Below the pieces are notes generated by a model. That model saw only the letters and a list, made by a program, of their open reading frames with translations. It did not search any database and was not told the origin of the DNA. From the NCBI GenBank assembly GCA_027325115.1, contig DAHWFG010000348.1:1-60202 (forward strand): a DNA stretch of 60,202 nt, in the 5' to 3' direction. This DNA is from Isosphaeraceae bacterium (GTDB lineage: Bacteria; Planctomycetota; Planctomycetia; Isosphaerales; Isosphaeraceae). A program made the position numbers and the translations under genes. This document shows positions 13,752 through 45,178 of the stretch, piece by piece. The first letter of the stretch is position 1, and each line of letters starts with the position of its first letter.

Positions 13752-14120
13752 GTTCTGTATCCGTTATTGTCGCGGGTATGAGATCAACCGCCGGCTCGCG
13801 TCGGCCATGGTGTGAAAATCGAATTGTGACGCGGCGGAGTTCGCGGGTCAACACTTCGCCGTGGGACGCATCGAACGCGCCGTTTTGAAACCGTCCTCAA
13901 CCATTTCGAAGCCATCGTATATTGATGTGTGTTGTTAATGTGGTGAGACGCAATTTCACAACAGCCGTCGATCGCGACGGGGCCGTTCATTTTCGGATTC
14001 GTGTACCGAACCAATCCGCGGGCGACTGGCCGATTCTTCCCGTTTTCGTTACACTTGAACTCGTGATTTCCCAAACCAAACCGATCCACACGCATTTGCG
14101 CAATCGAGAATCAAGCTTTG

Positions 14121-15988: not shown

Positions 15989-17475
15989 AAACGGTTACTC
16001 ACTTACCTACGTCCGTCAACTTTGATCGTCCCGCGCCTCCTCGCGTTGTGATCGTGGGGGGAGGCCTCGCGGGGCTCGCCGCCGCCGCGGCGCTTACCGG
16101 TCACGATCTCCAGATCACGCTGCTCGAAAGCCGACCCAGGCTGGGAGGGAGAGCCGGATCGTTCGTCGACCCCGCGTCGGGAGAGCTTGTCGATAATTGC
16201 CAACATGTCGGTATGGCTTGCTGTGTGAATCTGATCGATTTTTGCGAGCGAGTGGGCGTCGCCGATCTGTTCAAACGCGATCCCGTCATCGTCTTCGTGG
16301 GGCCCGACGGCCGCGTTTCCAAGATGAGCGCGGGGCGCATTCCCGCGCCGTTTCATTTAACGGCAAGTATGCTCAAGCTTTCGTTCTTAACATTCCTGGA
16401 TAAATTAAGAATCGCTTACGGCATGGCGCGATTACGGTTCGACGCCGCGGGTAAGCCGGGAGAAACGTTTGAATCCTGGCTCAAAAGACATGCGCAAAAC
16501 GACAGGACGATTGAACGGTTTTGGGGCTCGGTGCTCGTCTCGGCGCTCAACGAACGGCTCGATCGGATGGATATATTCCACGCCAGGAAAGTGTTTTTTG
16601 AGGGGTTTCTCGAAAATCGACAAGGCTACGCGCTCGATATCCCCGCGGCGCCCCTCGGTGAAATTTACGGAGTGAGGATGGAGGAATGGCTGGCGCGCAG
16701 AGGGGTCGAGGTTCGGCTCAAAACGGGCGTCAAACGCGTTGAGATCGATCACGAGTCATCGGTACAAAGCGTGATTCTACGTTCTGGAGAACGCCTTGAG
16801 GCCGATTTCGTGATCGTATCCGTCCCGTTCGATCGAATCGCCGACATGTTTCAAGCCGACGCGAACGGAAACTCCCCCGCTCCCAAATCGATCGAATCGA
16901 TCGAGGCTTCGCCGATTACGGGCGTTCATTTGTGGTTTGATAAACCCGTCTTTCCGTTCGCCCACGCTGCGATCGTCGGCAAAACGATTCAATGGGTGTT
17001 CAATCATACCGAACTGCAAGGTCGCGAGCCCGCCGGGCAGTATTTGCAGGTGGTGATCAGCGCGTCGTACGATCTCGTCGGTCGCGATAATGAATCAATC
17101 AAAGATCTTGTGCTTCAAGAATTGAGCGAACTTTGGCCCGAAGCCTCCGGGGCGAGTCTCAAGCGGTATCGAGTCGTGATCGAGCACGGAGCGACGTTCG
17201 CGGTTCGTCCCGGTATCGAAGCGCTCCGACCTCCTCAGCGAACCGCGGTCGACGGCCTCTTCTTCGCGGGCGATTGGACCGATACGGGCTGGCCCGCAAC
17301 GATGGAAGGCGCGGTTCGGAGCGGATATTTGGCGGCGGAAGGCGTCCTCGACGACCTCGGCAGGGCGCGCCGACTGCTCAAGCCCGATCTCCCCGCGGGC
17401 GCGCTCGCGCGATTCCTCCTGGGTCGAAAACCCGTCAATCGCACCATCCCCGGAGAATCGCGATCCAAACTCTAG
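15985..17475 (+). CDS. hpnE: Hydroxysqualene dehydroxylase HpnE (FAD-dependent amine-oxidase fold)
   Basis: It has the dinucleotide motif VVIVGGGLAGLAAAAAL..LLESRPRLGGR and the C-terminal FFAGDWT motif. Its start overlaps the hpnD stop (ATGA). Confidence 0.8.
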   Translation: MKTVTHLPTSVNFDRPAPPRVVIVGGGLAGLAAAAALTGHDLQITLLESRPRLGGRAGSFVDPASGELVDNCQHVGMACCVNLIDFCERVGVADLFKRDPVIVFVGPDGRVSKMSAGRIPAPFHLTASMLKLSFLTFLDKLRIAYGMARLRFDAAGKPGETFESWLKRHAQNDRTIERFWGSVLVSALNERLDRMDIFHARKVFFEGFLENRQGYALDIPAAPLGEIYGVRMEEWLARRGVEVRLKTGVKRVEIDHESSVQSVILRSGERLEADFVIVSVPFDRIADMFQADANGNSPAPKSIESIEASPITGVHLWFDKPVFPFAHAAIVGKTIQWVFNHTELQGREPAGQYLQVVISASYDLVGRDNESIKDLVLQELSELWPEASGASLKRYRVVIEHGATFAVRPGIEALRPPQRTAVDGLFFAGDWTDTGWPATMEGAVRSGYLAAEGVLDDLGRARRLLKPDLPAGALARFLLGRKPVNRTIPGESRSKL

Positions 17476-17687: not shown

Positions 17688-19553
17688 ATGATCCGTTCGA
17701 TGATCGGTGGGGCCGCGTTTTTCGGTTCGATCGTGCTCGCTTTCGCATGCGGATTAACTGCGAGCGTATCGGCCGGCGAGGGCCGGTTTATGGAACGGCT
17801 CGGACGCGGAGTCGTCGCGATTCCAGAAGATTCGGGCAAGGTTTTCCTATCATGGCGGCTGCTGGGAACCGATCCCGACGCGATCGCCTTCAACGTATAT
17901 CGCAAGCCCGCGAACGATTCGCCGAAGAAGCTTAACGAATCGCCGATCACAAACGCGACATCGTTCGTCGATTCATCCGCCGATCTCACGCACGAGAACA
18001 CATATTTTGTACGTCCCATCGTCGAAGGCAAAGAACTTGATCCGAGCGGGACGTTCACGATCAAGCCGGGAAATAAGAATCAATATTTATCGATACCGCT
18101 ACGAACCCCCGCGGGCTACGAGCCGAACGATATTGCTCCGGGGGATCTCGACGGCGACGGCGAATACGAGTTCGTTCTTCATCAAGCGTCGAAGGGACGC
18201 GATAATTCGCAAAAAGGCGCGACGGGCGAGCCGATCCTCGACGCCTACAAGCTCGACGGTACGCATCTTTGGCGGATCAACCTAGGTAAAAATATACGCG
18301 AAGGCGCGCATTACACGCAATTTTTGGTTTATGATTTTGACGGCGACGGCAAGGCCGAGGTCGTTTGTAAAACGGCCGACGGTACGGTCGACGGCGCGGG
18401 TGTTATTCTGGGAGATCCCCAAGCCGATTACCGCAATCCCGCGGGATACGTGCTCGACGGTCCCGAATTCCTTACAGTGTTCGACGGATTAACGGGGAAG
18501 GCGCTCGCGACGACTCCTTACATCCCGCCGCGAGGCAGGGTTTCGGACTGGGGGGACGGCTACGGCAATCGAGTCGATCGCTTCCTCGCGTGTGTCGCGT
18601 ATCTCGACGGCGAACGGCCGAGCATCGTGATGTGCCGCGGTTATTACACACGGACGGTTCTCGCCGCGTTCAACTGGCGTGCGGGCAGGTTATCTCATGT
18701 GTGGACATTTGATACCGATAAGTTAGGTCGGGTCGGTACGAATTATCGCGGTCAGGGGAATCATAATTTGAGCGTCGGCGACGTCGACGGCGACGGCAAG
18801 GATGAAATTGTGTACGGAGCATGCTGTATTGATGATAACGGCAAGGGGCTTTATTCGACGGGTTGGGGGCACGGCGACGCGCTTCATCTTTCCGACATCG
18901 ACCCCGCGCGACCCGGGCTTGAGGTGTTTGATATTCACGAGCGGCCCAGGCATCCCAACGGCGCCGAATTCCGCGACGCGCGAACGGGGAAGCTCATTTG
19001 GGGGAAGCAAAGCCCCGACGTCGGTCGGGGCGCGGCGTTCGATATCGATCCGCGTCATCCGGGATACGAGATGTGGGCCTCGGGGGCCGGATTGACCGGG
19101 GTTTGGAATGTTAAGGGAGAAATCGTTTCGGAAAGCAAACCGCGATCGTGCAATTTCGGCGTCTGGTGGGACGGCGACGCGTTGCGCGAGCTTTTGAACT
19201 CGAACCGTGTGACGAAATGGAACTGGAACGACGCGACCGAATCGACTCTCCTGACCGATCCCGCTTGCACCTCGAACAACGGCAGTAAATCGACCCCCTG
19301 CCTCTGCGCCGATATTTTGGGAGACTGGCGTGAAGAGATAATTTGGCGTAATAAAAATAACAACGAACTACGCATTTACACGACGACGATTCCGACCGAT
19401 CTTCGGTTATACACGTTGATGCATGATCCGCAATATCGGTTGAGCGTCGCGTGGCAAAACGTCGGCTACAACCAACCGACTCAGCCCGGCTTTTACCTGG
19501 GAGCGGGGATGAAACCGCCGCCTCGGCCGAGGATTCGCACCGATTCGCCTTGA
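17688..19553 (+). CDS. Secreted polysaccharide lyase family 11-like (rhamnogalacturonan lyase YesW-like) beta-propeller
   Basis: Signal peptide: MIRSMIGGAAFFGSIVLAFACG. Repeated Ca-binding blades: DLDGDGEYEF, YDFDGDGKAEV, DVDGDGKDEI. The C-terminus LRIYTTT..LYTLMHDPQYRLSVAWQNVGYNQPTQPGFYLG is what I recall from PL11 enzymes. Confidence 0.6.
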   Translation: MIRSMIGGAAFFGSIVLAFACGLTASVSAGEGRFMERLGRGVVAIPEDSGKVFLSWRLLGTDPDAIAFNVYRKPANDSPKKLNESPITNATSFVDSSADLTHENTYFVRPIVEGKELDPSGTFTIKPGNKNQYLSIPLRTPAGYEPNDIAPGDLDGDGEYEFVLHQASKGRDNSQKGATGEPILDAYKLDGTHLWRINLGKNIREGAHYTQFLVYDFDGDGKAEVVCKTADGTVDGAGVILGDPQADYRNPAGYVLDGPEFLTVFDGLTGKALATTPYIPPRGRVSDWGDGYGNRVDRFLACVAYLDGERPSIVMCRGYYTRTVLAAFNWRAGRLSHVWTFDTDKLGRVGTNYRGQGNHNLSVGDVDGDGKDEIVYGACCIDDNGKGLYSTGWGHGDALHLSDIDPARPGLEVFDIHERPRHPNGAEFRDARTGKLIWGKQSPDVGRGAAFDIDPRHPGYEMWASGAGLTGVWNVKGEIVSESKPRSCNFGVWWDGDALRELLNSNRVTKWNWNDATESTLLTDPACTSNNGSKSTPCLCADILGDWREEIIWRNKNNNELRIYTTTIPTDLRLYTLMHDPQYRLSVAWQNVGYNQPTQPGFYLGAGMKPPPRPRIRTDSP

Positions 19554-19760: not shown

Positions 19761-20867
19761 TTAAAGCGTTGGAATCAGCATTTTCTCACCGTTTTTCATC
19801 GCCGATTGGTGCGCGCAGATTCCCACCATCGTCCAATTCGCCGAGGTTTCGGCGTCGGGGAGCGCGGGACGATCGCCTTTGATCGCCGAAAGCCACGCGT
19901 GCGCGAGATGAGGATGCGATCCCCCGTGCCCGCCCCCCTGAATGAACGAGAGGTGCTGCTCGTCTTCGACGTTGTAAACGCCCTTCGTGGTGAAGCGACG
20001 GATCGGCTCGGGGAGCAGGTGCGCGAAATCGGGAACGTGAACGCGCTCGGGGATCTCTCCTTTGTGCAGAACGGGTTCTTCGCCTTCGATCTGCTGCCAC
20101 TCGAAGCTCGCCTTATCGCCGTAAACGTCAAAACTTTCGCGATATTGCCGCGCCGTTTCAAACAGGCTTCGCGTGACCTCGGCGGCGAGGTTGGAATCTT
20201 TGAGCTTCAGCGTCGCGGTTTCGATCGCGAACGGAGAGCCGTATTTGGATGTGAGCGAATCGCTGATCTTGCCCGACCCGTGACAAACGACGTGTTCGGC
20301 CAATTTACCGGGCAAGGCGAGGCACGGACTGACGCAGTGCGTCGCGTAATGCATCGGCGGCAGCCCCTCCCAATAGCCCGGCCAACCCGCCATTTCTTGC
20401 TGGTGCGAGCCGCGAAGGAACTGAATCCGTCCGATCGTCCCTTCTTCGTACAAATGTTTGACGAAGAGGTATTCGCGGCTGTAGACGACGGTTTCCATCA
20501 TCATATAAATTTTATCGGCGGCGCGGCGGGCCTCGACGATCGCTCGGCAATCTTCGATCGAGGTGGCCATCGGGACGGTGCACGCGACGTGCTTGCCCGC
20601 CTTGAGCGCCGCGAGCGATTGCGAAGCGTGATCCTGGATCGGCGAATTGATGTGCACGGCGTCGACGTTCGGATCTTTAAGCATGTCTTCAAACGACGTG
20701 TAACGAGCCTTGATTCCCCAGCGGTCGCCGCATTCCTCCAGGTCCTTCCGCGAGCGGCGACAGATCGCGTACATCTCGGCGTCGGGGTGATTTTGGTAGA
20801 TCGGAATGAATTCGGCGCCGAAGCCTAAACCGACGATCGCGACCCGGATTTTGGACTCTTTCGCCAT
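19761..20867 (-). CDS. Gfo/Idh/MocA-family NAD(P)-dependent sugar oxidoreductase
   Basis: It has the N-terminal Rossmann motif KIRVAIVGLGFGAEF and the EKP-like region LKAGKHVACTVPMA. The length and layout are typical of the family. Confidence 0.75.
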   Translation of the reverse strand: MAKESKIRVAIVGLGFGAEFIPIYQNHPDAEMYAICRRSRKDLEECGDRWGIKARYTSFEDMLKDPNVDAVHINSPIQDHASQSLAALKAGKHVACTVPMATSIEDCRAIVEARRAADKIYMMMETVVYSREYLFVKHLYEEGTIGRIQFLRGSHQQEMAGWPGYWEGLPPMHYATHCVSPCLALPGKLAEHVVCHGSGKISDSLTSKYGSPFAIETATLKLKDSNLAAEVTRSLFETARQYRESFDVYGDKASFEWQQIEGEEPVLHKGEIPERVHVPDFAHLLPEPIRRFTTKGVYNVEDEQHLSFIQGGGHGGSHPHLAHAWLSAIKGDRPALPDAETSANWTMVGICAHQSAMKNGEKMLIPTL

Positions 20868-22992: not shown

Positions 22993-24402
22993 TTAAGACC
23001 CCAGTCCCAGTCGCTTGCGGTGATACGAGAGCCTCTGGGACGGGTTCATTTTGGCGAAATCGGGCCTGCCGTCGGGGAGGGTCGGATACGTTCGCTCGGA
23101 ACCCGCCGAAACGGCCTCGACGCTCGGCTGAAAGGCGCGCGACGCGCTTTGCGTCACGCGTGGAGCGAACAAGATCGATCCCGCGGAGGCCGAGACGACC
23201 GACCCGTTTGATGAAGGTTCGTTCGCATGCTTTTCGTGGCATCGGCACGCATGCGTTGATGATTGGTTTCCCGGCTCGGCCGACGTCGATCGGGTTGCGA
23301 TCGATCCATTCGCGCTCGCTTGTGAAACCGACGATGAAGCGGATTCATTTTTTTGAGCGACGACCGAGGTCGAAGACGATCCGTAGCTCATCGAAGCCGA
23401 TTGATGTTTGAGGTCGTCTTCGAGCGATCGATGCGGGCGTACGCCCAGTTTGGAAAGCACCGCGTGGTACGCCTTGACGGCGTCGACCGGGCCGATCACT
23501 CCGTCGACGATCAGGCGAAGGAAGTGGACGAACGCGAGCTGATTTTCGGCGTTGTTGATCTTTCGGCCGAAGAGCGCAACCTTCGCCCCGTATTTCTGAG
23601 CGTCGTAGAGGAGTTGGAACGCGTCGAGCGTCGTCCCCGAAGCGCCTCCCAAAATACCGATCACAAGTTTGGGATCAAAACGAAACAATTCTTCCATCGC
23701 CCGCGGTCCGTGATACACCATCTTGAGGAATTGGGGACGTCCCGCGGGGGCGACACCGGCGAGCATGCGCGTGATCATATCATTGATATAACCAGGCAAA
23801 AGATCGGGAGCGACCGCGCCCGGAATGTTGGGATCGAACACCTCGAGAAAATAGCGAAAGCCTTTGCGTTCGGCCTCGATGCGGAATTCATGAAAGCGTT
23901 CGAGCGTTTCCTGGTCGCGATCGAGATCGTTGTTGAAGGTGACGCTATAAAGCCCCAGGTTCGCCCCCAGCGAGCGTTCTTGGTCGGCGCAATCTTCGTG
24001 TCCGCATTGGATATGATCAATCGTCGCCGAGCGGAACGGACGCGAGGGGCTCGAAGAATACCGCGATCCGCGCGCCAGGTGAATGTCGGTCGTATCGTTG
24101 GCGCGGACCGCGGGAGTTACGTGTGATTGTTCGAACAAACGTTCTTCAATCGTGAGCGCATGATTGTTATAAGCCGACATCAACATGATATCGACAAATC
24201 CCTGGCGGGTGATCGCGCGGATGTTCTCGCGATAATCCTCGAGAGTTTTGAAGCGAGCCTCGCCGCCGAGCGATTCAGGGGATTTTCCCGGAGCGCCCAG
24301 GCCGAAGGCCATGTCGCCGTCTTTGGCGTCGGCAAGGATGAACTCGCGACAGTTCGGGTCGGCGTCGATGAGCGCCAATTTTCGGTCGAGCGATTTATCC
24401 AT
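22993..24402 (-). CDS. Class-I-aldolase-like (DhnA/FbaB/LacD-type) TIM-barrel protein with a ~135-aa Ser-rich C-terminal tail; last gene of the BMC operon
   Basis: FILADAKDGDM, RYFLEVFD, PQFLKMVYHG (candidate Schiff-base Lys strand) and VIGILGGASGTT..GAKVALFGRKINN resemble the phosphate-binding end of class I aldolases. From about aa 334 the protein is Ser-rich low complexity. The start overlaps the upstream stop by 8 nt. This is a motif-level call only. Confidence 0.45.
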   Translation of the reverse strand: MDKSLDRKLALIDADPNCREFILADAKDGDMAFGLGAPGKSPESLGGEARFKTLEDYRENIRAITRQGFVDIMLMSAYNNHALTIEERLFEQSHVTPAVRANDTTDIHLARGSRYSSSPSRPFRSATIDHIQCGHEDCADQERSLGANLGLYSVTFNNDLDRDQETLERFHEFRIEAERKGFRYFLEVFDPNIPGAVAPDLLPGYINDMITRMLAGVAPAGRPQFLKMVYHGPRAMEELFRFDPKLVIGILGGASGTTLDAFQLLYDAQKYGAKVALFGRKINNAENQLAFVHFLRLIVDGVIGPVDAVKAYHAVLSKLGVRPHRSLEDDLKHQSASMSYGSSSTSVVAQKNESASSSVSQASANGSIATRSTSAEPGNQSSTHACRCHEKHANEPSSNGSVVSASAGSILFAPRVTQSASRAFQPSVEAVSAGSERTYPTLPDGRPDFAKMNPSQRLSYHRKRLGLGS

Positions 24403-25513
24403 TGCGGCCGTTTCCTCCGCGTCCCGAGATCGTCACTCGAGAACTCGAACTTCCCGCGGAACTCGTCGTCACCCGCACCGATCCCGCGGGCTTTGAGTTC
24501 GACGAGCTTTTCGGGCTCGCCGCCGCGGCCGATCCGTTCGTCGAAGACGCTGAGATATTTGATTTTGCCTGTGCGTTAGCGCCGTCGGAACCGAGCACCT
24601 GAGCGATCGTTTGTTTGAGCGTTTCGGCCGATCGCCGGAGCGCGGCGATCTCGGCGGGCCAAAGCTCGATTTCCAGGTGTTTCACGACCCCCGCTCGGCC
24701 GACGACCGTGGGAACCGAGAGGCTCACGTCGCGGATTCCGTAAGTTCCCAACACGAGCGACGAGACGGGGAGAATTCGTTTGAGATCGAGCGCGATCGCG
24801 TGGACGACATCGCGAATCGCGATCCCGACGGCGAAGCCCGCGCCTCCTTTGAGCTTGATCACCTCGGCGCCGCTTCCCTTCGTCTTTTGAAAGAGCGTGT
24901 CGGCGAGCGTGCGCGACCAACCCGGATATTTGTCGAGCGGAAGCCCCGCGATTTGCGCCGACGACCAGATCGGAACCATGCTGTCGCCGTGCTCGCCCAG
25001 AATGAGAGCGTTCACCTGCGTCGGGGGGGCGTCGAGCGCCTCCGCGATGATCCCGCGAAACCGAGCCGTGTCGAGCTGCGTCCCAAGCCCAATGACTTGC
25101 GTAAGAGGGATCGGCAGTTTTTTGGCCGCGAGATACGTTAAAACGTCGACCGGATTCGAGACGACGAGAATCACCGCGTCATTCTTGAGCCCCGCCTTAT
25201 GAATTTGCTCAAGAATACCCAGAAACAACGCGACGTTGCGATTGATCAGATCGAGTCGGCTCTCGTCGGGCTTGCGGCGCAACCCCGCGGTGATCACGAC
25301 GACGTCGCTTGTCGGGATCTCTTCATATCCCGACGAATAGATTTTTTGATCGGCGACGAGCGCGGCGCCGTGGAGCAGGTCGAGCGCCTGGCCTCGACAA
25401 AGATCGGCGCCGATATCGATGAGAGCGATTTCGCTCGCCACCGCGCCGCACTGAAGCGCAAACGCCGCGCACGATCCGACGAGCCCTCCGCCGCCGATGA
25501 TGCTTACTTTCAT
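24395..25513 (-). CDS. LDH/MDH-family 2-hydroxyacid dehydrogenase with a 64-aa Ser-rich C-terminal tail
   Basis: Motifs: MKVSIIGGGGLVGS (Rossmann), ITAGLRRKPDESRLDL (Arg at the Q/R102 specificity position, plus R109), SNPVDVLTY, GTQLDTARFR (D168, R171) and ILGEHGDS (H195). The tail SNISASSTNGSAAAASPKSSSNSKPAGSVRVTTSSAGSSSSRVTISGRGGNGRNG is not part of the LDH fold. Confidence 0.85.
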   Translation of the reverse strand: MKVSIIGGGGLVGSCAAFALQCGAVASEIALIDIGADLCRGQALDLLHGAALVADQKIYSSGYEEIPTSDVVVITAGLRRKPDESRLDLINRNVALFLGILEQIHKAGLKNDAVILVVSNPVDVLTYLAAKKLPIPLTQVIGLGTQLDTARFRGIIAEALDAPPTQVNALILGEHGDSMVPIWSSAQIAGLPLDKYPGWSRTLADTLFQKTKGSGAEVIKLKGGAGFAVGIAIRDVVHAIALDLKRILPVSSLVLGTYGIRDVSLSVPTVVGRAGVVKHLEIELWPAEIAALRRSAETLKQTIAQVLGSDGANAQAKSNISASSTNGSAAAASPKSSSNSKPAGSVRVTTSSAGSSSSRVTISGRGGNGRNG

Positions 25514-25551: not shown

Positions 25552-26448
25552 TCAAGCCGGAACGCCCGCGAGCGCCCGCATCACCTGATCGGTGATCGCC
25601 GCGACGAGCGATTCGACGTCTCCGCCGGCCGCTTGATCGGCATGAGCCGACCCCGTCGATCGCTGTTGATCTTGATATTTGGCGGGAATGAACGCGTGCG
25701 GCTCGGGTTTGAAATCGGAATACCCCTCGCGAAACAGGCTGTTGCCGCAGAGGTCGCAATTTTCGAGCCCGCGTTCGAGCCGCGCGTCGCGAATGCCGAG
25801 ACCAGGCTTGATTTTGATCAGCTCGGCGGCTTTTTCATCCGAGTAATAATTCACTCGACCAAGCTGTTTGGTGAGGATCAAGATGCGGCAGTAGCCGTCG
25901 ATGATCTCGGTTTTGAAATACGCGTCTTCGAGGTCGACTCCCGCGGTGATCGTCCCGTGATTCGCGAGGATGATCGTATCGGTATCTTTGATGTAAGGCA
26001 GCACGGTGTTCGCGAACGCCTGTGTACCAGGGGTTTCGTAAGGGGTGATCGCCACCTCGCCGAGGAAGACCTCGAACTCGGGCATCGTGCACTTGGGGAT
26101 CGGCTCGTGCGCCACGGCGAACGCCGTCGCGTGAGGGGGATGACAATGAACGCACGAATTGACGTCGGGTCGCGCTTTGAGAATCGACAAGTGAAGGAGA
26201 ATCTCACTCGACCGTTTTCGCGTTCCCGCGAGCTGATTCCCCTCGAGATCGACGATGCAAAGATCGTCGGGCTTCATAAACCCTTTCGATACCCGCGTGG
26301 GGGTGCACAAGACGCGATTTTCACCGAGTCGCATCGAGATGTTGCCGTCGTTCGCCGCGGCGAAACCCTTGGCGTAAACGCGTCTGCCGATCTCGCACAT
26401 CCGCTCGCGCAGCTTCCATTCGCTCATCAAAGTTCCATTGGCGCTCAT
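25552..26448 (-). CDS. Class II aldolase (L-fuculose/L-rhamnulose-1-phosphate aldolase-like) with a C-terminal extension and encapsulation-peptide-like helix
   Basis: Fold motifs: AANDGNISMRL, the Zn ligands VHCHPPHATAF and ILANHGTITAG. An ~80-aa extension ends in DVESLVAAITDQVMRALAGVPA. ATG 26448 is preceded by AGGAG 9 nt upstream; the ORF track start at 26508 would overlap the upstream gene. Confidence 0.85.
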   Translation of the reverse strand: MSANGTLMSEWKLRERMCEIGRRVYAKGFAAANDGNISMRLGENRVLCTPTRVSKGFMKPDDLCIVDLEGNQLAGTRKRSSEILLHLSILKARPDVNSCVHCHPPHATAFAVAHEPIPKCTMPEFEVFLGEVAITPYETPGTQAFANTVLPYIKDTDTIILANHGTITAGVDLEDAYFKTEIIDGYCRILILTKQLGRVNYYSDEKAAELIKIKPGLGIRDARLERGLENCDLCGNSLFREGYSDFKPEPHAFIPAKYQDQQRSTGSAHADQAAGGDVESLVAAITDQVMRALAGVPA

Positions 26449-26477
26449 ACCGACGTTCTCCTGTGATCTCTTATGTA

Positions 26478-26759
26478 TTATGAACAATGAATATGATCGA
26501 TCAGACACGCGCAGTACGCGTCGACGGGTTTCACGTCTTTGCCGAACGGGTTCGCGGCTTCGCCTCCCTCGCTCAGCCCGATCCGGTCGCCGGGGCTCGC
26601 ACCGAGGTCGTCGTAGGCGATCACCTCTTCGCCGCGGCGGGGCGACCCGGCGACGAGAGCCTCCCTGGGCATCGGCGCCGCGATCACGAACCGAGCCCCC
26701 TTAAGCGAGGGATGCGCCCGCGACAAAACGACCTTGCCGATCACCTCGGCGATCCTCAT
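26478..26759 (-). CDS. BMC-P pentameric vertex protein (EutN/CcmL family), paralog 3
   Basis: The product MRIAEVIGKVVLSRAHPSLKGARFVIAAP..VIAYDDLGASPGDRIGLSEGGEA has the EutN/CcmL layout. ATG 26759 is preceded by GGAG. Confidence 0.8.
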   Translation of the reverse strand: MRIAEVIGKVVLSRAHPSLKGARFVIAAPMPREALVAGSPRRGEEVIAYDDLGASPGDRIGLSEGGEAANPFGKDVKPVDAYCACLIDHIHCS

Positions 26760-26850
26760 CGAAAACGCTCCCATAAAGCCGTCAAAACGATATCAAGGGA
26801 TCGAAGCGATCGACCGATTTCGAGACTCGCGGTTATGCAACTGAGATTGA

Positions 26851-27105
26851 TCATGTGTTAGGAAGTCCCAAAACGCTCCAGCGACCGGGGGTGTCGCGAC
26901 CGATCATCTCTTGGAGAATCTTGCCGTCGTTGGTGAGCAGAACGGTCTCCCCCCTCCCCGCCCCGAGCCGATCGAACGCGAGCACGGGTTCGCCGTCGTC
27001 CCCCCCTTCGCTCGTAAGCAATTGGACGACGAGCAAACGCTCCCCCTGGAACGTCTTATGCTTCACGGTCGACGTCGCCGTTCCGATCACCACTCCGAGC
27101 TGCAC
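26851..27105 (-). CDS. BMC-P pentameric vertex protein (EutN/CcmL family), paralog 2
   Basis: The product is MQLGVVIGTATSTVKHKTFQGERLLVVQLL..VLAFDRLGAGRGETVLLTNDG, 84 aa. This is the classic EutN/CcmL N-terminus and size. Confidence 0.85.
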   Translation of the reverse strand: MQLGVVIGTATSTVKHKTFQGERLLVVQLLTSEGGDDGEPVLAFDRLGAGRGETVLLTNDGKILQEMIGRDTPGRWSVLGLPNT

Positions 27106-27135
27106 GCGTATTGATCCTTATCGAATGAAAGATTA

Positions 27136-28569
27136 TTAAACAAAACGGAACCCGCCGACGATCGAGGTTCGTCGTTGTCGGCAGAACGTCAACGGAGTCG
27201 TCACACCTTCGCCCGTCGGTCCCGCGATCGAGAACGAAAGCGATCCCTCGCCCCCCAGGCCTAGACCCGCGACGCTTGGGCCGTTGACGACGAAAATCGT
27301 GCAATCCATCGCCTTCCCCATGCGAGTCATCGTTCCCGTATCGCGCGAGTGCAAAATCGCGGTGTGGCCGTAGCCGTGTTCCGACGATTTGGCGAGTTCG
27401 ATCGCTCGATCGACGTTCTCGACGCGCACAAATGGAATAAACGGCATCATCTGTTCATGATCGACGAACGGATGATCCGCCGACGTTTCGCCGAAGAGAA
27501 TCTGTGTACCCTCGGGAACACGCACCCCCGCATGTTCTCCCAGGATCGCGGGATCTCGCCCCACGAGATCTTTATCGACGACGAGTCTCCCTTTATCGTC
27601 TTTTTTGAACGCGGCTCGCGTGAGCGCGGCGATCCGTTCCGAGTCGATTCGGAAGCCGCCGTGCCGAGAGACCGCGTCCATCAGTTTGTCGAAAATCGAA
27701 GCGACCGCGAACACCTGCTTTTCACCGATACATAGCAGGTTATTATCAAACGCCGCTCCTTCGACGATCGATTTGGCGGCGAGTTCGAGATCGGCGGTCG
27801 TATCGACGACGACGGGGGGATTTCCGGGGCCCGCGACGATCGCGCGGCGGTTGCTCGCGAGCGCCGCCCTGGCGACCGCGGGACCTCCCGTGACAACGAG
27901 CAAACGAACGCCTCGATGTTCAAATAATGCTGATGCCGATTCGAGCGTCGGTGGATCGATGATCGTCAGCAGGTCGTCGAGGCCGATCGCTTCGCGAATC
28001 GCCTGATTGAACCGGCGAACCCCCTCGGCGGCGACTTTCGCTCCCGAAGGATGCGCGTTGAACACGACGGTATTTCCCGCGGCGAGCATGTTGATCGCGT
28101 TGCCCGCGAGCGTGGGCAAGCTGTGCGTGACGGGGGTGATCGCGCCGATCACGCCGAAGGGCGCATAATCGGTGAGAGTCAGTCCCGCGTCACCCGACAC
28201 GTTCTCGGTGCGGAGGAATTCGACCCCGGGAACACGTTCGGCGGCCACTTTGAGCTTGGCGATCTTATGATCAAGCCGGCCGATTTTGGTTTCATCGAGC
28301 TCCATCCTGCCGAGTTCCTCGGCCTGATCGAGACAGATTGCGCGGATTCGATCAATCGCCGTGCGACGGTCTTCGAGCGGTCGCGTTCGGAACGCCTGAA
28401 AGGCTCGTTCCGCCGCGGCCACCGCGGAATCGGCGTCGCGATACACCCCGTTCGACCCGCGTCCGCCTCGGCAAGGTCGACCCGCGCCGGTCTCCGCCGG
28501 CGCAACCTCGCCGATCCGGCTCAGCACCTCTTGAACGACGCCTCGAATAAGATCCTCGCTTAATTGCAT
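27136..28569 (-). CDS. CoA-acylating aldehyde dehydrogenase (PduP/EutE-like) with an N-terminal encapsulation peptide
   Basis: N-terminal amphipathic helix: MQLSEDLIRGVVQEVLSRIG, followed by a Gly/Pro linker. Catalytic Cys context: AAFDNNLLCIGEKQVF. The 477-aa length fits BMC AldDHs. Confidence 0.85.
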   Translation of the reverse strand: MQLSEDLIRGVVQEVLSRIGEVAPAETGAGRPCRGGRGSNGVYRDADSAVAAAERAFQAFRTRPLEDRRTAIDRIRAICLDQAEELGRMELDETKIGRLDHKIAKLKVAAERVPGVEFLRTENVSGDAGLTLTDYAPFGVIGAITPVTHSLPTLAGNAINMLAAGNTVVFNAHPSGAKVAAEGVRRFNQAIREAIGLDDLLTIIDPPTLESASALFEHRGVRLLVVTGGPAVARAALASNRRAIVAGPGNPPVVVDTTADLELAAKSIVEGAAFDNNLLCIGEKQVFAVASIFDKLMDAVSRHGGFRIDSERIAALTRAAFKKDDKGRLVVDKDLVGRDPAILGEHAGVRVPEGTQILFGETSADHPFVDHEQMMPFIPFVRVENVDRAIELAKSSEHGYGHTAILHSRDTGTMTRMGKAMDCTIFVVNGPSVAGLGLGGEGSLSFSIAGPTGEGVTTPLTFCRQRRTSIVGGFRFV

Positions 28570-28636
28570 GATCGATTCTTCTCCCGTTTTCCAGCGTCGA
28601 TCGGAACGACGCGCAATTTCTCATGTGTGTATTCGA

Positions 28637-28954
28637 TTAGTGATTCGTCAGTTTCGAATAAATCGTTCGCCCTTCGACGTCGACGGTGTCGACGAGGCCG
28701 ATGATGACGGCGTCGACGGGGAGTTTCTCGGTCTCGGGGGTGAGCCTGGCGCTCGATCCCTGACAGATCAAAACATAATCTCCGAGCCCCGCTCCGAGCG
28801 CGTCGACGACGATAAACGTCCGTCCTGTAGGCGCAAGTCGATCCCTCGTCTTTTCGTCGACGCGGTACGGCTCGACCGCGAGAAGCTTGCGTCCCGTCAT
28901 CGAAGCGACCTTTTGGGTGGCGACGACGACGCCTGTCACTTTGGCGACGAACAT
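28637..28954 (-). CDS. BMC-P pentameric vertex protein (EutN/CcmL family), paralog 1
   Basis: The product is MFVAKVTGVVVATQKVASMTGRKLLAVEPY..FIVVDALGAGLGDYVLICQGSSAR. It begins 3 nt after the ackA stop. Confidence 0.85.
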   Translation of the reverse strand: MFVAKVTGVVVATQKVASMTGRKLLAVEPYRVDEKTRDRLAPTGRTFIVVDALGAGLGDYVLICQGSSARLTPETEKLPVDAVIIGLVDTVDVEGRTIYSKLTNH

Positions 28955-28957
28955 CGA

Positions 28958-30154
28958 TCAGCCTCCCGAGGCCAGTAGGTCGCGCGCCTGGCGAGCGACG
29001 ACGATTTCCTCGTTCGTGGGAACTGTCCAAATTTGAACGCGCGAATGATCGCTTGATACGACCGATTCATCTTTCGCGGCGGCGTTGCGTTCGGGGTCGA
29101 GCTCGATCCCGAACCAGGAGAGATCGCGGCAAACCCCCTCGCGAATCCATCGGGAGTTTTCGCCGATTCCTCCCGTGAAGACGATCGCGTCGGCGCCGCC
29201 AAGTTCGACGAGATACGCCCCGAGATAATGACGTATCGACGCGATATAAACATCGATTGCGAGTCGAGCTCGGGAGTCTCCCTGATGCGCCGCGGTTTCG
29301 ATGTCGCGGAGGTCGCGGCTTGTTCCGCTTAGCCCTTCAAGGCCCGAGCGATTCGCGAGCGTATCGAGAATTTTCTCAAGCGGAAGCCCGGTCTCACGCA
29401 TCAACAGCGGCAAAGCGAAGACGTCGAAATCCCCCACGCGGTTGTTCTGCGGCAGCCCCGATTGCGGGCTCATCCCCAGGCTGCACGCGACCGACTTCCC
29501 GTTCCTGATCGCGCACAACGACGAGCTTCCTCCCAAATGACATGAAATGACTTTTATGTCGTTGCGATTGAGAATTTCGCTCATTCGGCCGGCGATGTAG
29601 CGATGACTTGCTCCGTGGAAACCCCAGCGGACGACGCCGAATTGCGTCGCCCATTCGTCGGGGATCGCATAACGTTTATTGGCTTGGGGGATCGTTTCGT
29701 GGAAGCCGGTTTCGAACGACGCGACCAGAGGTAGGTCGGGGAAGCGTTTGGCGAGCGAGCGCATCGCACGGATGTAAGGGGGATTGTGCGCCGGCGCGAC
29801 CTCGGCGAACGAGTCCATAACATCTAATAATTTAGACGTAATGCGATGAGCGCCCGTGATTTTACCCGCGTGGACCGCCTTGAAGCCGATCGCCGCGATC
29901 TCGGCCTCGCTTTCGATGACGCCGAGCTTGGGGTCGGTCAACTGTTCGAGGCAAATGCTCACCGCGACGGCGTGATCGGGTATCGGCTCGACGAGGTCGA
30001 TCTGGCGTTTGGGCGACCAGATCGTCACCTTGGCTTGATCGGACCCGATCCGTTCGACCGAGCCTTTGGCGAGGAGCGGTTCGGCGGGATCTCCCAGGTC
30101 GTAAAGCCGATACTTGAAGCTCGTGCTGCCGAGATTGGCGACGAGGATTTTCAA
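28958..30154 (-). CDS. ackA: Acetate/propionate-family kinase
   Basis: Motifs MKILVANLGSTSFKYRLYDL, RWGFHGASHRYI, ISCHLGGSSSLCAI and IVFTGGIGENS are canonical acetate-kinase motifs. Confidence 0.9.
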   Translation of the reverse strand: MKILVANLGSTSFKYRLYDLGDPAEPLLAKGSVERIGSDQAKVTIWSPKRQIDLVEPIPDHAVAVSICLEQLTDPKLGVIESEAEIAAIGFKAVHAGKITGAHRITSKLLDVMDSFAEVAPAHNPPYIRAMRSLAKRFPDLPLVASFETGFHETIPQANKRYAIPDEWATQFGVVRWGFHGASHRYIAGRMSEILNRNDIKVISCHLGGSSSLCAIRNGKSVACSLGMSPQSGLPQNNRVGDFDVFALPLLMRETGLPLEKILDTLANRSGLEGLSGTSRDLRDIETAAHQGDSRARLAIDVYIASIRHYLGAYLVELGGADAIVFTGGIGENSRWIREGVCRDLSWFGIELDPERNAAAKDESVVSSDHSRVQIWTVPTNEEIVVARQARDLLASGG

Positions 30155-30179
30155 GGTTACATCTCCCGAAACGAGAACG

Positions 30180-30497
30180 TCAGCCGCCGATGAATGTTTG
30201 AACGACGACGTTTTGAGGTCTGGGGATCACGTGCGCCGCGATCAATTGGCCCCCCCTCGCCGCGGCGTCGGCGCCGGCCTCGACCGCGGCGCGAACGCTT
30301 GAAACGTCCCCCTGAACCATTACGCTTACGAGCCCGCCGTCGAGCTTGATTACCGAGCTCGCGAGCGTCACGTTCGCCGCCTTGAGCATCGCGTCGATTC
30401 CCTGGATCAGGCCGACGAGCCCCATCGTCTCGATCATGCCGATCGCCGAGCCGTTATTCACGGTCGTCACCCTTTCAAATTCATAAGATGCGAACAT
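30180..30497 (-). CDS. BMC-H hexameric shell protein (Pfam00936-type single domain), paralog 3
   Basis: The core reads [72 protein letters not shown] 30497 was chosen; a TTG at 30542 would add 15 aa. Confidence 0.85.
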   Translation of the reverse strand: MFASYEFERVTTVNNGSAIGMIETMGLVGLIQGIDAMLKAANVTLASSVIKLDGGLVSVMVQGDVSSVRAAVEAGADAAARGGQLIAAHVIPRPQNVVVQTFIGG

Positions 30498-30569
30498 GCG
30501 ATTTGGCCTCGCCGATGCGAAGCCGAGTCCGCTTCGGATCAACCGTCGATAAAGAACGCTTACGTTCGA

Positions 30570-30893
30570 TCACTTGACGTACGTTTCGAGGATCGTCCGA
30601 TCGGGGCGGGGAATCACGTGAGCCCCGACGAGTTCGCCCACCTTGGACGCGGCGTCGGCGCCGGCTTCGACCGCGGCGCGGACGCTGCCGACGTCTCCTT
30701 TGACGAGAGTCGTCACATACCCCGCGCCGATGCCCACGCGTCCCGCGAGCGTCACGTTCGCGGCCTTAAGCATCGCGTCGGTCGCCTCGATCAAGCCGAC
30801 GAGCCCCTTCGTCTCGATCAGGCCGAGCGCGTCGCCGTTCGATCCATTGGAAGATACATTCATTTTTGAACCTTTTTGGTGTGCGGTCGCCAT
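30570..30893 (-). CDS. BMC-H hexameric shell protein, paralog 2
   Basis: The core reads [71 protein letters not shown] 30893 lies 2 nt after the upstream stop and has GGAG 9 nt upstream. An alternative start is 30863. Confidence 0.85.
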
Positions 30894-30897
30894 GATG

Positions 30898-31227
30898 TCA
30901 CGCTCCGTCGTTTCGGGTCGCTGCGGGAGCGGCCGCGGGCTTCTTGGCGAACGGCAAAACGCCCCCCAGATCCTCGTGAGGTCGAGGAATCACTTGAACG
31001 CTAATCACTTCGCCGATGCGACCCGCCGCCGCGGCGCCCGCGTCGACCGCGGCCTTCACCGCCGCGACGTCTCCCGCGACGAACGCCGTCACGAGCCCGC
31101 TTCCCACTTTATCCCAGCCGACCAACTCGACGTTGGCGGCCTTCACCATCGCGTCGCTCGCCTCGACGAGCGCGATGAATCCCTTGCACTCGATCATGCC
31201 GAGCGCTTCCAGGGACGCGTTTGCCAT
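30898..31227 (-). CDS. BMC-H hexameric shell protein, paralog 1 (PduA/EutM-like, with an Ala/Pro-rich C-terminal tail)
   Basis: The product begins [76 protein letters not shown]. The tail is [15 protein letters not shown]. Confidence 0.9.
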
Positions 31228-31301
31228 CGGTCAACTCCTCATCCAAATCAGAAAACGTGAGAATCAATAGACGCTAGTACGCCGGCAAAAACTTCGATCG
31301 A

Positions 31302-31994
31302 TCACCCGCGCGGCCTCACGAGCTCGACTTTCGTCGCGTGAGCCAGATCGCAGCAGTTCGCTTCGTCGGTGTCGATATGAACCTCGAGCTTCCAATCGTC
31401 GTGGGTCCGCACGAGCAGCCCCTCGAGCACGGTCGGACACGAGCCCTCGACCCGCATATCAAGACGATCCTTGTGCTTCACTCCGTAATAACGCGCATCT
31501 TTCGGCCCCATATGAACATGACGTTCGGCGCGGATCACTCCGCGGGGCAATACCAAACTCCCCTTCGGTCCGATCAACAGGCATCCCGGAGTCCCTTCGA
31601 TCTCTCCCGAAAGCCGCACCGGAAGTTCGATTCCCAGGCTGATCGCATCGGTGAACGCAAGTTCAACCTGGCTGAATTGTCGGCAAGGACCGAGAATCCG
31701 AACGCTCGGAATCATCCGCCGCCTTGGCCCGACGACCGCGACGGTCTCGTTCGCGGCGAAATCGGTCGATTGATAAAGAGTCCGCATCGGCGTTAACTGA
31801 TATCCCGATCCAAAAAGAACGTCGACGTCGGCTTGCGTTAAATGACAATGACGCGCCGAGATGTTGACGACAAGGTTCGGTCGATAAGACGGTTCGACTT
31901 GATGGGCCGAGCGGCCGTTCAGTCCACCCAGCCGATCGATCAAAATCGATCGGACGATCCCCTCCACCTGATCTCGAGCGATCGCCGTCGTCAT
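31302..31994 (-). CDS. pduL: PduL-type phosphate acyltransferase (phosphotransacylase) with an N-terminal encapsulation peptide
   Basis: N-terminal helix: [17 protein letters not shown]. The duplicated PduL signatures are [19 protein letters not shown] and [18 protein letters not shown]. Confidence 0.85.
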
Positions 31995-32818
31995 GAACCT
32001 CTCCTTGTCGCTTCGTCGCGAGTTTGTCCGTTGAACGATTCGGCGAACGGATCAGGTTCCAACTCGGCGAACAACACGTCCACGTTCTTATCGCGCAACA
32101 TGCTTCGATGTTCCTCGCTCAATCCGGAGTCGACGACGATCGTGCGCACGCTTTCGAGACCGCACAGCCACGCGAGCGCCGGCTTGCCGAATTTGGTGTG
32201 ATCGGCGACGACGAACACCTCCTGGGCGCACGCCGTCATTCGCCTCTGAGTCTCTACTAATAATAAATTGTGATTATAGATACCGTCCGCGATGATTCCG
32301 CCGGCGCCCATGATCGTCTTCCGCACCCTGACGTCTTTCATCCCGTCGATCGCGATCGGGCCGAGCGCCACCCCCGTTTTGGGGTAAACGTAGCCGCCGA
32401 TCAGAATCAAATCGGTCTCTTTGCTCGCGGCGATCAGCGATGCGATCGGCAGGCTGTTCGTCACGATCTGCACGGGTCGGCCGACGAGAGCGCGAGCGAC
32501 CTCGAGCGTCGTCGTTCCGCCGTCAAGAAGGATCGATTCGCCGTCTTCGATCAAAGACGCGACGAGGCGACCGATCGCACGCTTTTCCGCCGCCGAAGTC
32601 GCTGCACGATCCTCGAGAGCCGGAAGCGACTTCATCTCCGCAACGCTCACGGCGCCGCCGTAAACCCGCTTGATTAGCCCCGCGTGATCGAGAGCTTCCA
32701 GATCGCGGCGAACCGTACTCTCAGAGGCGCCCAACGAAGCCGCAACCCCGGTCAGGCTCGCGAAACCATCGCGACCGATCCGTTCCAGCAGCAATCGACG
32801 ACGCGTCTCTTGATTCAT
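31991..32818 (-). CDS. DeoR-family transcriptional regulator (first gene of the BMC operon)
   Basis: N-terminal HTH: [51 protein letters not shown]. The C-terminus is a DeoR-C sugar-phosphate-binding-type domain. The stop overlaps the pduL start (ATGA). The start was chosen at MNQETRRR (32818). Confidence 0.8.
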
Positions 32819-32919
32819 GATCGATTCGACTCGAAGTCCTTCGCACGCCACGAATGCTATTCTTCAATCTCGAACAGAGTCTGTCAAGAACCCGGAGAAC
32901 TCTTTTCGTCATTTTGAAC

Positions 32920-45115: not shown

Positions 45116-45178
45116 GATCGATCTCGGCGGGAATGACGCGCGGGGGCGAACGATATAAATATACAAATACTTAAACCG

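Follow-up and report, generated by a model that had tools for sequence, protein, structure and literature searches.

The window analyzed here is a 60,202-nucleotide (nt) stretch of DNA from an Isosphaeraceae bacterium (GenBank assembly GCA_027325115.1, contig DAHWFG010000348.1, positions 1 to 60,202 of the forward strand). Its minus strand carries a full PVM-type bacterial microcompartment (BMC) gene set, recognized by Pfam matches and comprising genes for a DeoR regulator, PduL, three BMC-H proteins, acetate kinase, three BMC-P proteins of the EutN type, a CoA-acylating aldehyde dehydrogenase, a class II aldolase, and a lactate/malate dehydrogenase (LDH/MDH)-like enzyme. The last gene of the operon encodes a 469-amino-acid (aa) protein that is the subject of this work and is here called the aldolase-like protein. 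It is thus encoded within a shell-gene operon.

A sequence-only reading of the window had proposed that the gene overlaps the end of the LDH/MDH-like gene by 8 nt and is cotranslated with the operon. The open reading frame (ORF) and both codons lie as proposed: the ATG of the aldolase-like gene occupies positions 24402-24400, and the TAA stop codon of the LDH/MDH-like gene (24395..25513) occupies 24397-24395. Moreover, a Shine-Dalgarno-like sequence precedes the ATG from within the LDH/MDH coding end, GGAGG-like sites occur at the matching place before the aldolase-like gene in related loci, and the distance from the LDH stop to the aldolase start ranges from −8 to +5 nt across the intact related BMC loci. 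Scanning for terminators and promoters around the gene gave no informative sites. We conclude that the aldolase-like gene is translationally coupled to the LDH/MDH-like gene. The features of the locus are as follows.

22993..24402, minus strand: whole gene for the 469-aa divergent class I aldolase-like protein, consisting of barrel, linker, and tail (ORF and homologues)
24395..24402, minus strand: 8-nt overlap ATGGATAA of LDH/MDH stop and aldolase-like start, translational coupling
24413..24418, minus strand: Shine-Dalgarno-like GGAGGA, 10 nt 5′ of the ATG, within the LDH/MDH coding end (from sequence)
23398..24402, minus strand: putative catalytic (β/α)8 barrel, aa 1-335 (AlphaFold2 model and Foldseek)
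23722..23724, minus strand: codon of K227, candidate Schiff-base lysine at the end of strand β6 (invariance; hhalign with LsrF K203)
23635..23649, minus strand: GGASG (aa 252-256) after β7, predicted phosphate-binding loop (alignment with LsrF and MJ0400)
23551..23568, minus strand: GRKINN (aa 279-284) after β8, predicted phosphate-binding loop (alignment with LsrF and MJ0400)
23083..23397, minus strand: low-complexity Ser/Ala/Pro linker, aa 336-440, predicted to be disordered (predicted local distance difference test [pLDDT] 34-38; alignments)
23236..23247, minus strand: CRCH (aa 386-389), a CxC motif (C386 and C388 at least 90% conserved)
22996..23082, minus strand: conserved basic C-terminal tail, aa 441-469 (TLPDGRPDFAKMNPSQRLSYHRKRLGLGS), with a predicted helix at 454-464 (pLDDT ~91)
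24395..25513, minus strand: LDH/MDH-like dehydrogenase of the PvmO type, directly upstream (Pfam Ldh_1_N and Ldh_1_C; naming from the PMC8217296 supplement)
25552..26508, minus strand: class II (metal-dependent) aldolase of the PvmN type, known as the signature enzyme of PVM microcompartments; carries a CDLC motif and, at its C terminus, an encapsulation peptide (Pfam Aldolase_II; tail conservation)
26478..32851, minus strand: rest of the PVM operon, namely, two BMC-P genes, aldehyde dehydrogenase, BMC-P, acetate kinase, three BMC-H genes, PduL, and DeoR (Pfam)

PVM microcompartments are known from Planctomycetes and Verrucomicrobia, where they serve the use of fucose and rhamnose, and the published gene set matches the operon found here (PMC4207490, PMC8217296). 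The operon nomenclature runs from PvmB (phosphotransacylase [PTAC]) to PvmO (LDH-like), with nothing named beyond PvmO (PMC8217296 supplement), and the aldolase-like gene is therefore an addition to the described PVM locus. The BMC taxonomy and catalogue papers likewise make no mention of a gene after PvmO.

Fold, candidate active site, and family

Direct assignment of the aldolase-like protein to a family was unsuccessful. No Pfam family matched at E values of up to 1, the best trace in NCBIfam was to ADH synthase (PRK07226) at 12.5 bits and thus below the cut-off of 241, and a search of PDB sequences with the single protein returned nothing significant, such that a structure model and a fold search were required. 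Ten diverse homologues gave no Pfam aldolase match either. One homologue matched ADH synthase TIGR01949 weakly (E of 1e-4). The sequence-only reading had been unable to match the protein to a named family, and the absence of any matching Pfam or NCBIfam model agrees with it.

To model the fold, AlphaFold2 was run on an alignment of 86 homologues. The model contained a (β/α)8 barrel between aa 22 and 299, with a pLDDT mostly of 75 to 97, in which eight strands (residues 22-26, 72-75, 96-100, 149-155, 183-189, 225-229, 247-251, and 273-278) alternate with helices, in line with the alternation previously noted in the first ~330 aa. When the model was compared to the PDB with Foldseek, the top 50 matches were all DhnA/LacD-type class I aldolases and their relatives, with no unrelated family among them. 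The best match was Methanocaldococcus jannaschii ADH synthase (E of 1.3e-8; target-normalized TM-score of 0.70), and further matches included tagatose-1,6-bisphosphate aldolase LacD of Streptococcus pyogenes, fructose-1,6-bisphosphate (FBP) aldolase of Thermoproteus tenax, Escherichia coli LsrF, and sulfohexulose-1-phosphate aldolase. The class I aldolase-like TIM barrel that the sequence-only reading had named is therefore what the model and the fold search return.

The candidate active site was located by alignment. A family profile searched against PDB sequences found LsrF (E of 0.02) and MJ0400 (E of 0.16) over the β7-β8 region, where GGASG lies opposite AGG, and FGRKI lies opposite GRNI, of both proteins. 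Profile comparison by hhalign to E. coli LsrF, FbaB, and YihT placed K227 (FLKM) opposite the Schiff-base lysine K203 (IIKT) of LsrF with an E value of 0.0065, and the spacing from the lysine to the GG loop, counted from the alignments, is 25 residues in the aldolase-like protein and 24 in LsrF. Moreover, in 20 sequences, the most distant at 42% identity, no substitution occurs at D25, D28, D71, R100, N102, E187, K227, G252, G253, G279, or R280, of which D25 and D28 lie on β1 and E187 on β5, and the motifs FLKMVYHG, GGASG, and GRKINN are invariant or nearly so in the 86 close homologues and 20 diverse ones. Thus, the proposal that FLKMVYHG is a candidate Schiff-base lysine strand and that GGASG...GRKINN resembles a phosphate-binding motif was borne out at the level of alignment. 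We note that two divergent representatives, P0171 and P0212, read FVE and FTL at the position of FLK and hence seem to lack the β6 lysine, which could mean that they are pseudoenzymes or could reflect a shift in the alignment. We conclude, from sequence comparison and model together, that the protein is a real and very divergent Schiff-base (class I) aldolase-like enzyme.

The family is large. More than 8,000 homologues, counted as clusters at 90% identity, were present in the protein database, which is the reason to regard the gene as real and conserved, and the closest of them came from Singulisphaera and other Isosphaeraceae. When 50%-identity representatives were scanned in full with HMMER, 1,085 clusters had an E value of 1e-3 or below. 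Five of these representatives (P0129, P0170, P0174, P0183, and P0206) contain out-of-frame stretches that look like assembly errors rather than pseudogenes. Homologues are publicly named "hypothetical protein" (NCBI) or "DhnA family fructose-bisphosphate aldolase class Ia" (COG-type annotation). No curated threshold of the PF01791/COG1830 models was reached, and because the sequence models fail, the proteins are placed outside PF01791, in an unnamed family of their own within the same superfamily. We conclude that the aldolase-like protein belongs to a distinct unnamed family remotely related to the DhnA/FbaB/LacD/LsrF group; this family very probably represents a new branch among the Schiff-base aldolases.

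The C-terminal linker and tail

Beyond what the sequence-only reading had described, the aldolase-like protein carries a C-terminal extension. Alignments divide the protein into three parts: a conserved domain of ~340 residues, a Ser/Ala/Pro-rich linker that varies in length and sequence among homologues and has a pLDDT of ~35 in the model, and a conserved tail of ~28 residues with the consensus DGRPDFxRMxxxQRLAYHRxRLGLGR. The tail motif PDFxxM(S/T)xx(E/Q)(K/R)Lx(Y/W)(H/N)..R is found in the BMC-linked clade; in Thermoguttaceae, Anammoximicrobium, and one verrucomicrobial homologue, none of which has BMC genes nearby; and in P0212, a 34%-identical representative with a PDF..M...KLAY tail. By comparison, kinase-adjacent homologues are 333 to 350 aa long and end right after the barrel, without the tail. 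The CxC motifs in the linker, of which there are one or two per protein, are restricted to the BMC-linked clade. AlphaFold places the tail with high confidence and with β-bridges at residues 441 and 447, both of which hint that it may pack against the barrel or a neighboring subunit. The possibility that the tail is a portable module was rejected, as the motif occurs once per locus and solely in the aldolase-like gene.

One way to account for a long linker and a conserved terminal peptide is that the protein is a catalytically dead scaffold or assembly factor, with the aldolase fold and tail organizing the core of the organelle. Such a role would agree with the apparent loss of the β6 lysine in P0171 and P0212 and with the inactive paralogues of enzymes bearing encapsulation peptides (EPs) that are known in other BMCs (PMC11585597). 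Against it, the candidate catalytic and phosphate-binding residues are invariant in the protein and in all of its close relatives, and the barrel is 50 to 60% identical to homologues that are coupled to kinases and presumably active. We give a dead scaffold only a very slim chance.

Extensions were also seen on two other proteins of the operon. The C-terminal part of the PvmN-type class II aldolase (25552-25800) contains a conserved GLENCDLCGNSLFREGY (CxxC), a variable linker, and a canonical EP, DVESLVAAITDQVMRALAG, and its CDLC motif, linker, and EP are all missing in non-BMC PvmN homologues of ~255 aa (L055 and L059). The annotated GTG start of PvmN at 26508 is probably too far upstream, as it produces a 31-nt overlap with the preceding BMC-P gene and homologues align from about residue 21, beyond the listed start. 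The PvmO-type LDH/MDH carries a Ser/Gly/Asn-rich C-terminal extension of ~60 aa (24395-24590) in which two short motifs, VRVT(M/T)G ... SRVT(I/V)SG.G..GRR, are conserved in all intact BMC loci. This extension is nonamphipathic (hydrophobic moment of 0.25) and may be another noncanonical cargo extension. Finally, an oxidoreductase of the GFO/IDH/MocA family recurs near tail-bearing homologues in three clades (19761-20867 on the minus strand of the window, 5782-7212 in L019, and Thermoguttaceae, e.g., 1132-2511 in L021) and is conserved 3 kb from the aldolase-like gene in L001, L017, and L056; this family is very abundant in Planctomycetes, and its recurrence could be due to chance.

Microcompartment loci and kinase-coupled relatives

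The sequence-only reading had suggested that the gene might be a BMC-associated enzyme, and one part of that suggestion stood. The gene recurs in 23 other BMC loci of Isosphaeraceae and allied planctomycete metagenome-assembled genomes (MAGs), at 59 to 97% identity, and in each of them it immediately follows the LDH-like gene within a complete PVM operon. One further short contig has the order class II aldolase, LDH, aldolase-like gene. The closest genome locus (L001) belongs to the MAG "Planctomycetota bacterium FK2.bin68" and is 97% identical over the aldolase-like domain. In several long-read MAGs (L003, L020, L036, L054, L058, L070, and L080), the aldolase-like or LDH gene is frameshifted or truncated in a manner that looks like assembly error rather than pseudogene formation. 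Moreover, the BMC-linked copies are monophyletic in a neighbor-joining tree. We conclude that a single recruitment placed the gene at the 3′ end of the PVM operon, in one Isosphaeraceae-like planctomycete clade.

What did not stand was BMC association as a property of the family at large, as most members lie outside BMC loci, beside or fused to PfkB kinases. A genome scan limited to one genome per species found 518 loci with relatives, the best 80 of which were examined. Some 55 of those loci, with aldolase-like proteins at 50 to 65% identity, had no BMC genes within 10 kb and came from Thermoguttaceae, Pirellulaceae, Verrucomicrobiota, Granulosicoccaceae, Shinella, and other Proteobacteria. 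A PfkB-family sugar kinase was the immediate neighbor in 27 of the ~55, and in two natural fusions, P0127 (727 aa) and P0175 (674 aa), an N-terminal aldolase-like domain is joined to a C-terminal PfkB kinase. In Gammaproteobacteria, a compact unit encodes the aldolase, kinase, sugar-binding protein, permease, and ATPase together with a ROK regulator. One verrucomicrobial locus has the order XylA-like isomerase, aldolase, kinase, glycoside hydrolase; another has aldolase, major facilitator superfamily (MFS) sugar transporter, kinase; and in a third (L074) the neighbor matches the Pfam family Khk, "prokaryotic ketohexokinase." This adjacency and fusion indicate that the substrate of the family is the product of a sugar kinase. 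The partner kinases scored best against the IolC-N and ribokinase models and reached only 37 to 58 bits against the 1-phosphofructokinase (1-PFK)/PfkB/LacC model, which has a cut-off of 216. Because they are thus unlike the 1-phosphofructokinase/tagatose-6-phosphate kinase subfamily, they probably phosphorylate a free sugar, and the substrate of the aldolase is probably a monophosphate. No characterized kinase-coupled class I aldolase of a matching kind was found in the literature.

A second association of the family is with the class II aldolase itself. In Verrucomicrobiota, the aldolase-like gene and a PvmN-like class II aldolase gene of the fuculose-phosphate type form a two-gene unit (L059 and L055), and in L063 and L085 the order is aldolase-like gene, class II aldolase, rhamnulokinase (475 bits against TIGR02627). 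Other than this rhamnulokinase, no homologues of the E. coli rha or fuc genes were found near loci bearing the aldolase-like gene. We conclude that the aldolase-like gene is linked to the fucose/rhamnose pathway in two phyla, by the BMC loci and by the verrucomicrobial class II aldolase loci.

The nature of the kinases bears on whether the protein could instead be a DhnA/FbaB-like FBP aldolase that drains the organelle pathway. During growth on fucose or rhamnose, dihydroxyacetone phosphate (DHAP) from the class II aldolase, after triose-phosphate isomerase (TPI), would be combined with glyceraldehyde 3-phosphate to give FBP for gluconeogenesis, either in the cytosol or in the lumen. E. coli FbaB is a gluconeogenic isozyme, homologues of the protein are automatically named DhnA family FBP aldolases, and the archaeal FBP aldolase structures 1w8s and 1ojx are among the closest folds. 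Moreover, only through DHAP does the organelle pathway lead directly into central metabolism (PMC4207490), and some subtypes of sugar phosphate utilization (SPU) BMCs contain TPI and an aldolase with predicted EPs, for which FBP formation has been proposed (PMC11585597). The family is, on the other side, patchy and accessory in its distribution, which includes plasmid-like replicons of Shinella with sugar ATP-binding cassette (ABC) transporters and regulators and is unlike that of a central-metabolism enzyme; its partner kinases fall outside the bisphosphate-forming 1-PFK/PfkB/LacC subfamily; its compact operons and fusions with a single kinase imply a monophosphate substrate; and the operon contains no TPI gene. 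We therefore regard an FBP aldolase as unlikely.

The same genomic context speaks to a different use of the Schiff-base scaffold, in which the protein would be an LsrF-like thiolase, converting a phosphorylated diketone and CoA to DHAP and acyl-CoA, or an ADH synthase-like transaldolase. LsrF and ADH synthase are the best matches at the sequence level and are among the best structural ones, and formation of an acyl-CoA would suit a CoA-centered metabolosome with PduL and acetate kinase. Nonetheless, the scanned neighborhoods contained nothing resembling the lsr pathway, neither LsrG- nor LsrK-type genes, and the dominant context of sugar transporter plus sugar kinase points to phosphorylation followed by cleavage. 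We consider nonaldolase chemistry to be improbable.

Proposed function and likeness to known systems

The reading that we favor, to which we give somewhat less than an even chance, is that the aldolase-like protein is a catalytically competent ketose-1-phosphate aldolase, forming DHAP and an aldehyde, that was recruited as an accessory second aldolase of the PVM organelle. K227 at the end of β6 would react with a ketose 1-phosphate at its C2 carbonyl to form an imine, the GG (β7) and GR (β8) loops would hold the C1 phosphate, and E187 on β5, probably as an acid/base, would drive cleavage between C3 and C4 to give DHAP and an aldehyde; the role of E187 is assigned by analogy with LacD and muscle aldolase. 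The substrate of the family would be made by a sugar kinase acting on a free sugar, usually a PfkB kinase and in one case one of the ketohexokinase type. In the BMC clade, the accessory aldolase would most likely cleave a sugar phosphate that is poorly handled by the class II aldolase PvmN, and the aldehyde product would feed the aldehyde dehydrogenase, PduL, acetate kinase, and LDH-like core of the organelle, to which the clade-specific Cys-containing linker and the conserved tail may tether the enzyme.

Several observations weigh against this reading. Sequence similarity to known aldolases is marginal (E of 0.02 by PDB profile and 0.0065 by hhalign). All class I DHAP aldolases known to us give 3S products. 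L-Fuculose-1-phosphate and L-rhamnulose-1-phosphate are 3R, and therefore the natural substrate is probably neither of the two, in which case the enzyme would complement PvmN. Genes resembling those for PfkB, FGGY kinases, RhaA, FucI, and XylA were absent from the 60-kb window, and no homologues of PfkB, FGGY kinases, or the isomerases lie within 10 kb of any BMC-linked locus; the adjacent or fused PfkB kinase that marks the family is thus lacking for the gene studied here, and the kinase for the BMC-clade enzyme would be encoded elsewhere in the genome. Among 80 metagenomic loci surveyed around PvmN-like aldolases of other lineages, 59 had at least two BMC genes, and the aldolase-like gene was missing in all 36 PVM loci that reach at least 3 kb beyond the aldolase. 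The gene is therefore accessory and not a core PVM component. The gene set of P. limnophilus, a member of the Planctomycetes, also ends at PvmO (PMC8217296), such that the core pathway can do without the aldolase-like gene.

The tail itself is a further difficulty for encapsulation. An EP is a terminal amphipathic helix of ~15 to 18 aa that follows a poorly conserved linker and is missing in non-BMC homologues (PMC4594438). The architecture of the extension, a linker followed by a conserved terminal helix, fits this description; the composition of the tail and its occurrence outside BMC loci do not. Its best 14-residue hydrophobic moment is 0.33, which is below the shuffle mean, with 14% aliphatic residues and a net charge of +4, compared with 0.51 to 0.56, 36 to 43%, and −2 to 0, respectively, for the three canonical EPs of the operon (the PvmN C terminus and the N termini of aldehyde dehydrogenase and PduL). 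Moreover, the tail is present in Thermoguttaceae, Anammoximicrobium, and one verrucomicrobial homologue that have no BMC genes within 10 kb, and it is therefore not BMC specific. On the grounds of composition, hydrophobic moment, and this occurrence, a canonical EP was rejected as a reading of the tail. Encapsulation of the enzyme is possible, at a little below an even chance.

These observations could also mean that the protein is a cytosolic sugar-phosphate aldolase of another pathway, merely cotranscribed with the DeoR-controlled BMC operon and without a direct metabolic connection to the organelle. Consistent with mere cotranscription, the family is mostly unconnected with BMCs, most PVM loci lack the gene, the tail is unlike an EP and is found outside BMC loci too, and the genes downstream in BMC loci encode unrelated peptidases. 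Mere cotranscription would not account for the strict position and tight coupling of the gene in 23 loci of a monophyletic clade, for its independent adjacency in Verrucomicrobia to PvmN-type class II aldolases and rhamnulokinase, or for CxC motifs in the BMC clade that parallel the Cys motif of PvmN. We think it distinctly unlikely, and we retain an accessory ketose-1-phosphate aldolase as the favored reading. An extension of that reading, which we hold to be doubtful, is that the PVM organelle of this clade contains two mechanistically unrelated signature aldolases, the class I enzyme being packaged not by a canonical amphipathic EP but by a novel type of targeting or assembly module made up of the CxC linker, possibly metal or disulfide linked, and the basic C-terminal peptide. 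If so, the range of sugar phosphates used by the organelle would be widened, for example, to 3S-configured deoxy-ketose 1-phosphates that yield an aldehyde and DHAP.

Neither the fold nor the probable chemistry of the protein is new in kind, and a "DhnA-like" enzyme is already suggested by COG-type annotation. What is new is a distinct, large, and uncharacterized family that is systematically coupled to sugar kinases; its attachment, in one planctomycete clade, to the PVM operon by translational coupling; and BMC-linked copies with a Cys-containing linker and a conserved basic tail that is shared with some non-BMC homologues. Coupling to kinases and transporters in Planctomycetota, Verrucomicrobiota, and some Proteobacteria implies an uncharacterized sugar catabolic route in major degraders of polysaccharides. 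The PVM microcompartment, an important means of fucose and rhamnose turnover in soils, peat, and oceans, is not uniform, as one lineage has added a probable second aldolase with a Cys-containing extension of its own. If the enzyme is encapsulated, microcompartment engineering would gain from it both a second entry reaction and a targeting element of a new sort; if it is not, it still points to the compounds that these bacteria bring into the organelle pathway or take out of it.

Other features of the operon and the window were noted. The P. limnophilus locus has two BMC-H and three BMC-P genes (PMC8217296 supplement). The operon in the window has three BMC-H paralogues that are 51 to 61% identical to one another (30180-31227, minus strand), as well as a BMC-P triplet within 26478-28954 (minus strand), and no PvmL-like flavoprotein fragment was seen between its last two BMC-P genes. 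Within 10 kb of PVM operons of other lineages, there are homologues of rhamnulokinase (L106, L111, L114, L115, L119, L131, L133, L137, L144, and L163), RhaA (L114 and L163), and FucI (L139), none of which was found near the Isosphaeraceae-type operons that bear the aldolase-like gene. Downstream of the aldolase-like gene, an S15 peptidase gene is recurrent in BMC loci and an M28 peptidase gene is present in the window; both look unrelated. A PL11 rhamnogalacturonan lyase gene (775 bits; 17688-19553, plus strand) lies 3.4 kb beyond the end of the operon, and its product could plausibly supply the pathway with oligosaccharides that contain rhamnose. At 14118-17475 (plus strand), a tandem pair of squalene/phytoene synthase genes precedes a flavin amine-oxidase-type gene in what looks like an HpnC/HpnD/HpnE-like set for squalene synthesis, and a 1,029-aa protein with DUF7133, HEAT repeats, and a cytochrome c domain is encoded at 42077-45166 (minus strand). 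The window was nearly complete (96% of sampled words) in a mine-drainage metagenome run and partly present in mine-tailings runs; the sequencing runs that matched it were DNA metagenomes only, with no RNA runs among them.

Among known systems, the closest in structure are the DhnA/FbaB class IA aldolases and MJ0400 (PF01791, COG1830; 2qjg, 1w8s, and 1ojx), which gave the best structural matches and share with the aldolase-like protein the (β/α)8 fold, the lysine at the end of β6, and the GG and GR loops after β7 and β8, all in the same register. They differ in that identity is ~14% with no hidden Markov model match, the barrel is ~70 residues longer in the aldolase-like protein, and the C-terminal linker and tail are present only there. 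In addition, the β5 residue is Tyr in the archaeal aldolases and Glu (E187) in the aldolase-like protein. The closest in gene order are the pairs YihV/YihT (sulfofructose kinase and sulfofructose-1-phosphate aldolase) and LacC/LacD, in which, as in the family, a PfkB kinase stands beside a class I aldolase, sometimes with an isomerase. Judged by gene order, the family follows the same logic of isomerase, kinase, and aldolase leading to DHAP and an aldehyde, and both sulfohexulose-1-phosphate aldolase (8tnf) and LacD were among its structural matches. By sequence, the aldolases of those pairs belong to another family, and no kinase lies near the gene in the window. Fusions of a PfkB kinase and the aldolase that acts on its product are likewise known from the bifunctional IolC-aldolase proteins (NF047869, 5-dehydro-2-deoxygluconokinase/aldolase); in P0127 and P0175 the domain order is reversed, with the aldolase N-terminal, and the aldolase domain does not match NF047869.

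Within the organelle, the nearest counterpart is PvmN. The two aldolases share an operon; each has, in its BMC-linked copies, a C-terminal extension comprising a Cys motif and a conserved terminal helix, which as a whole is missing from the non-BMC copies; and PvmN adjoins the aldolase-like gene outside BMC operons as well. Their folds are unrelated, as are their mechanisms (Zn-enolate for PvmN and, as predicted, a Schiff base for the aldolase-like protein); PvmN is universal in PVM loci, whereas the aldolase-like gene is found in one clade; and PvmN ends in a canonical amphipathic EP, whereas the tail of the aldolase-like protein is basic and weakly amphipathic. As a precedent for a Schiff-base TIM-barrel aldolase that generates the aldehyde of a metabolosome, DERA comes closest. 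It is a clear PF01791 class I aldolase that has been assayed, it is the signature enzyme of SPU BMCs, and it carries a nonstandard N-terminal extension for which a role in targeting has been proposed (PMC11585597). DERA defines its BMC type, whereas the aldolase-like protein is accessory in a BMC that already holds a signature aldolase.

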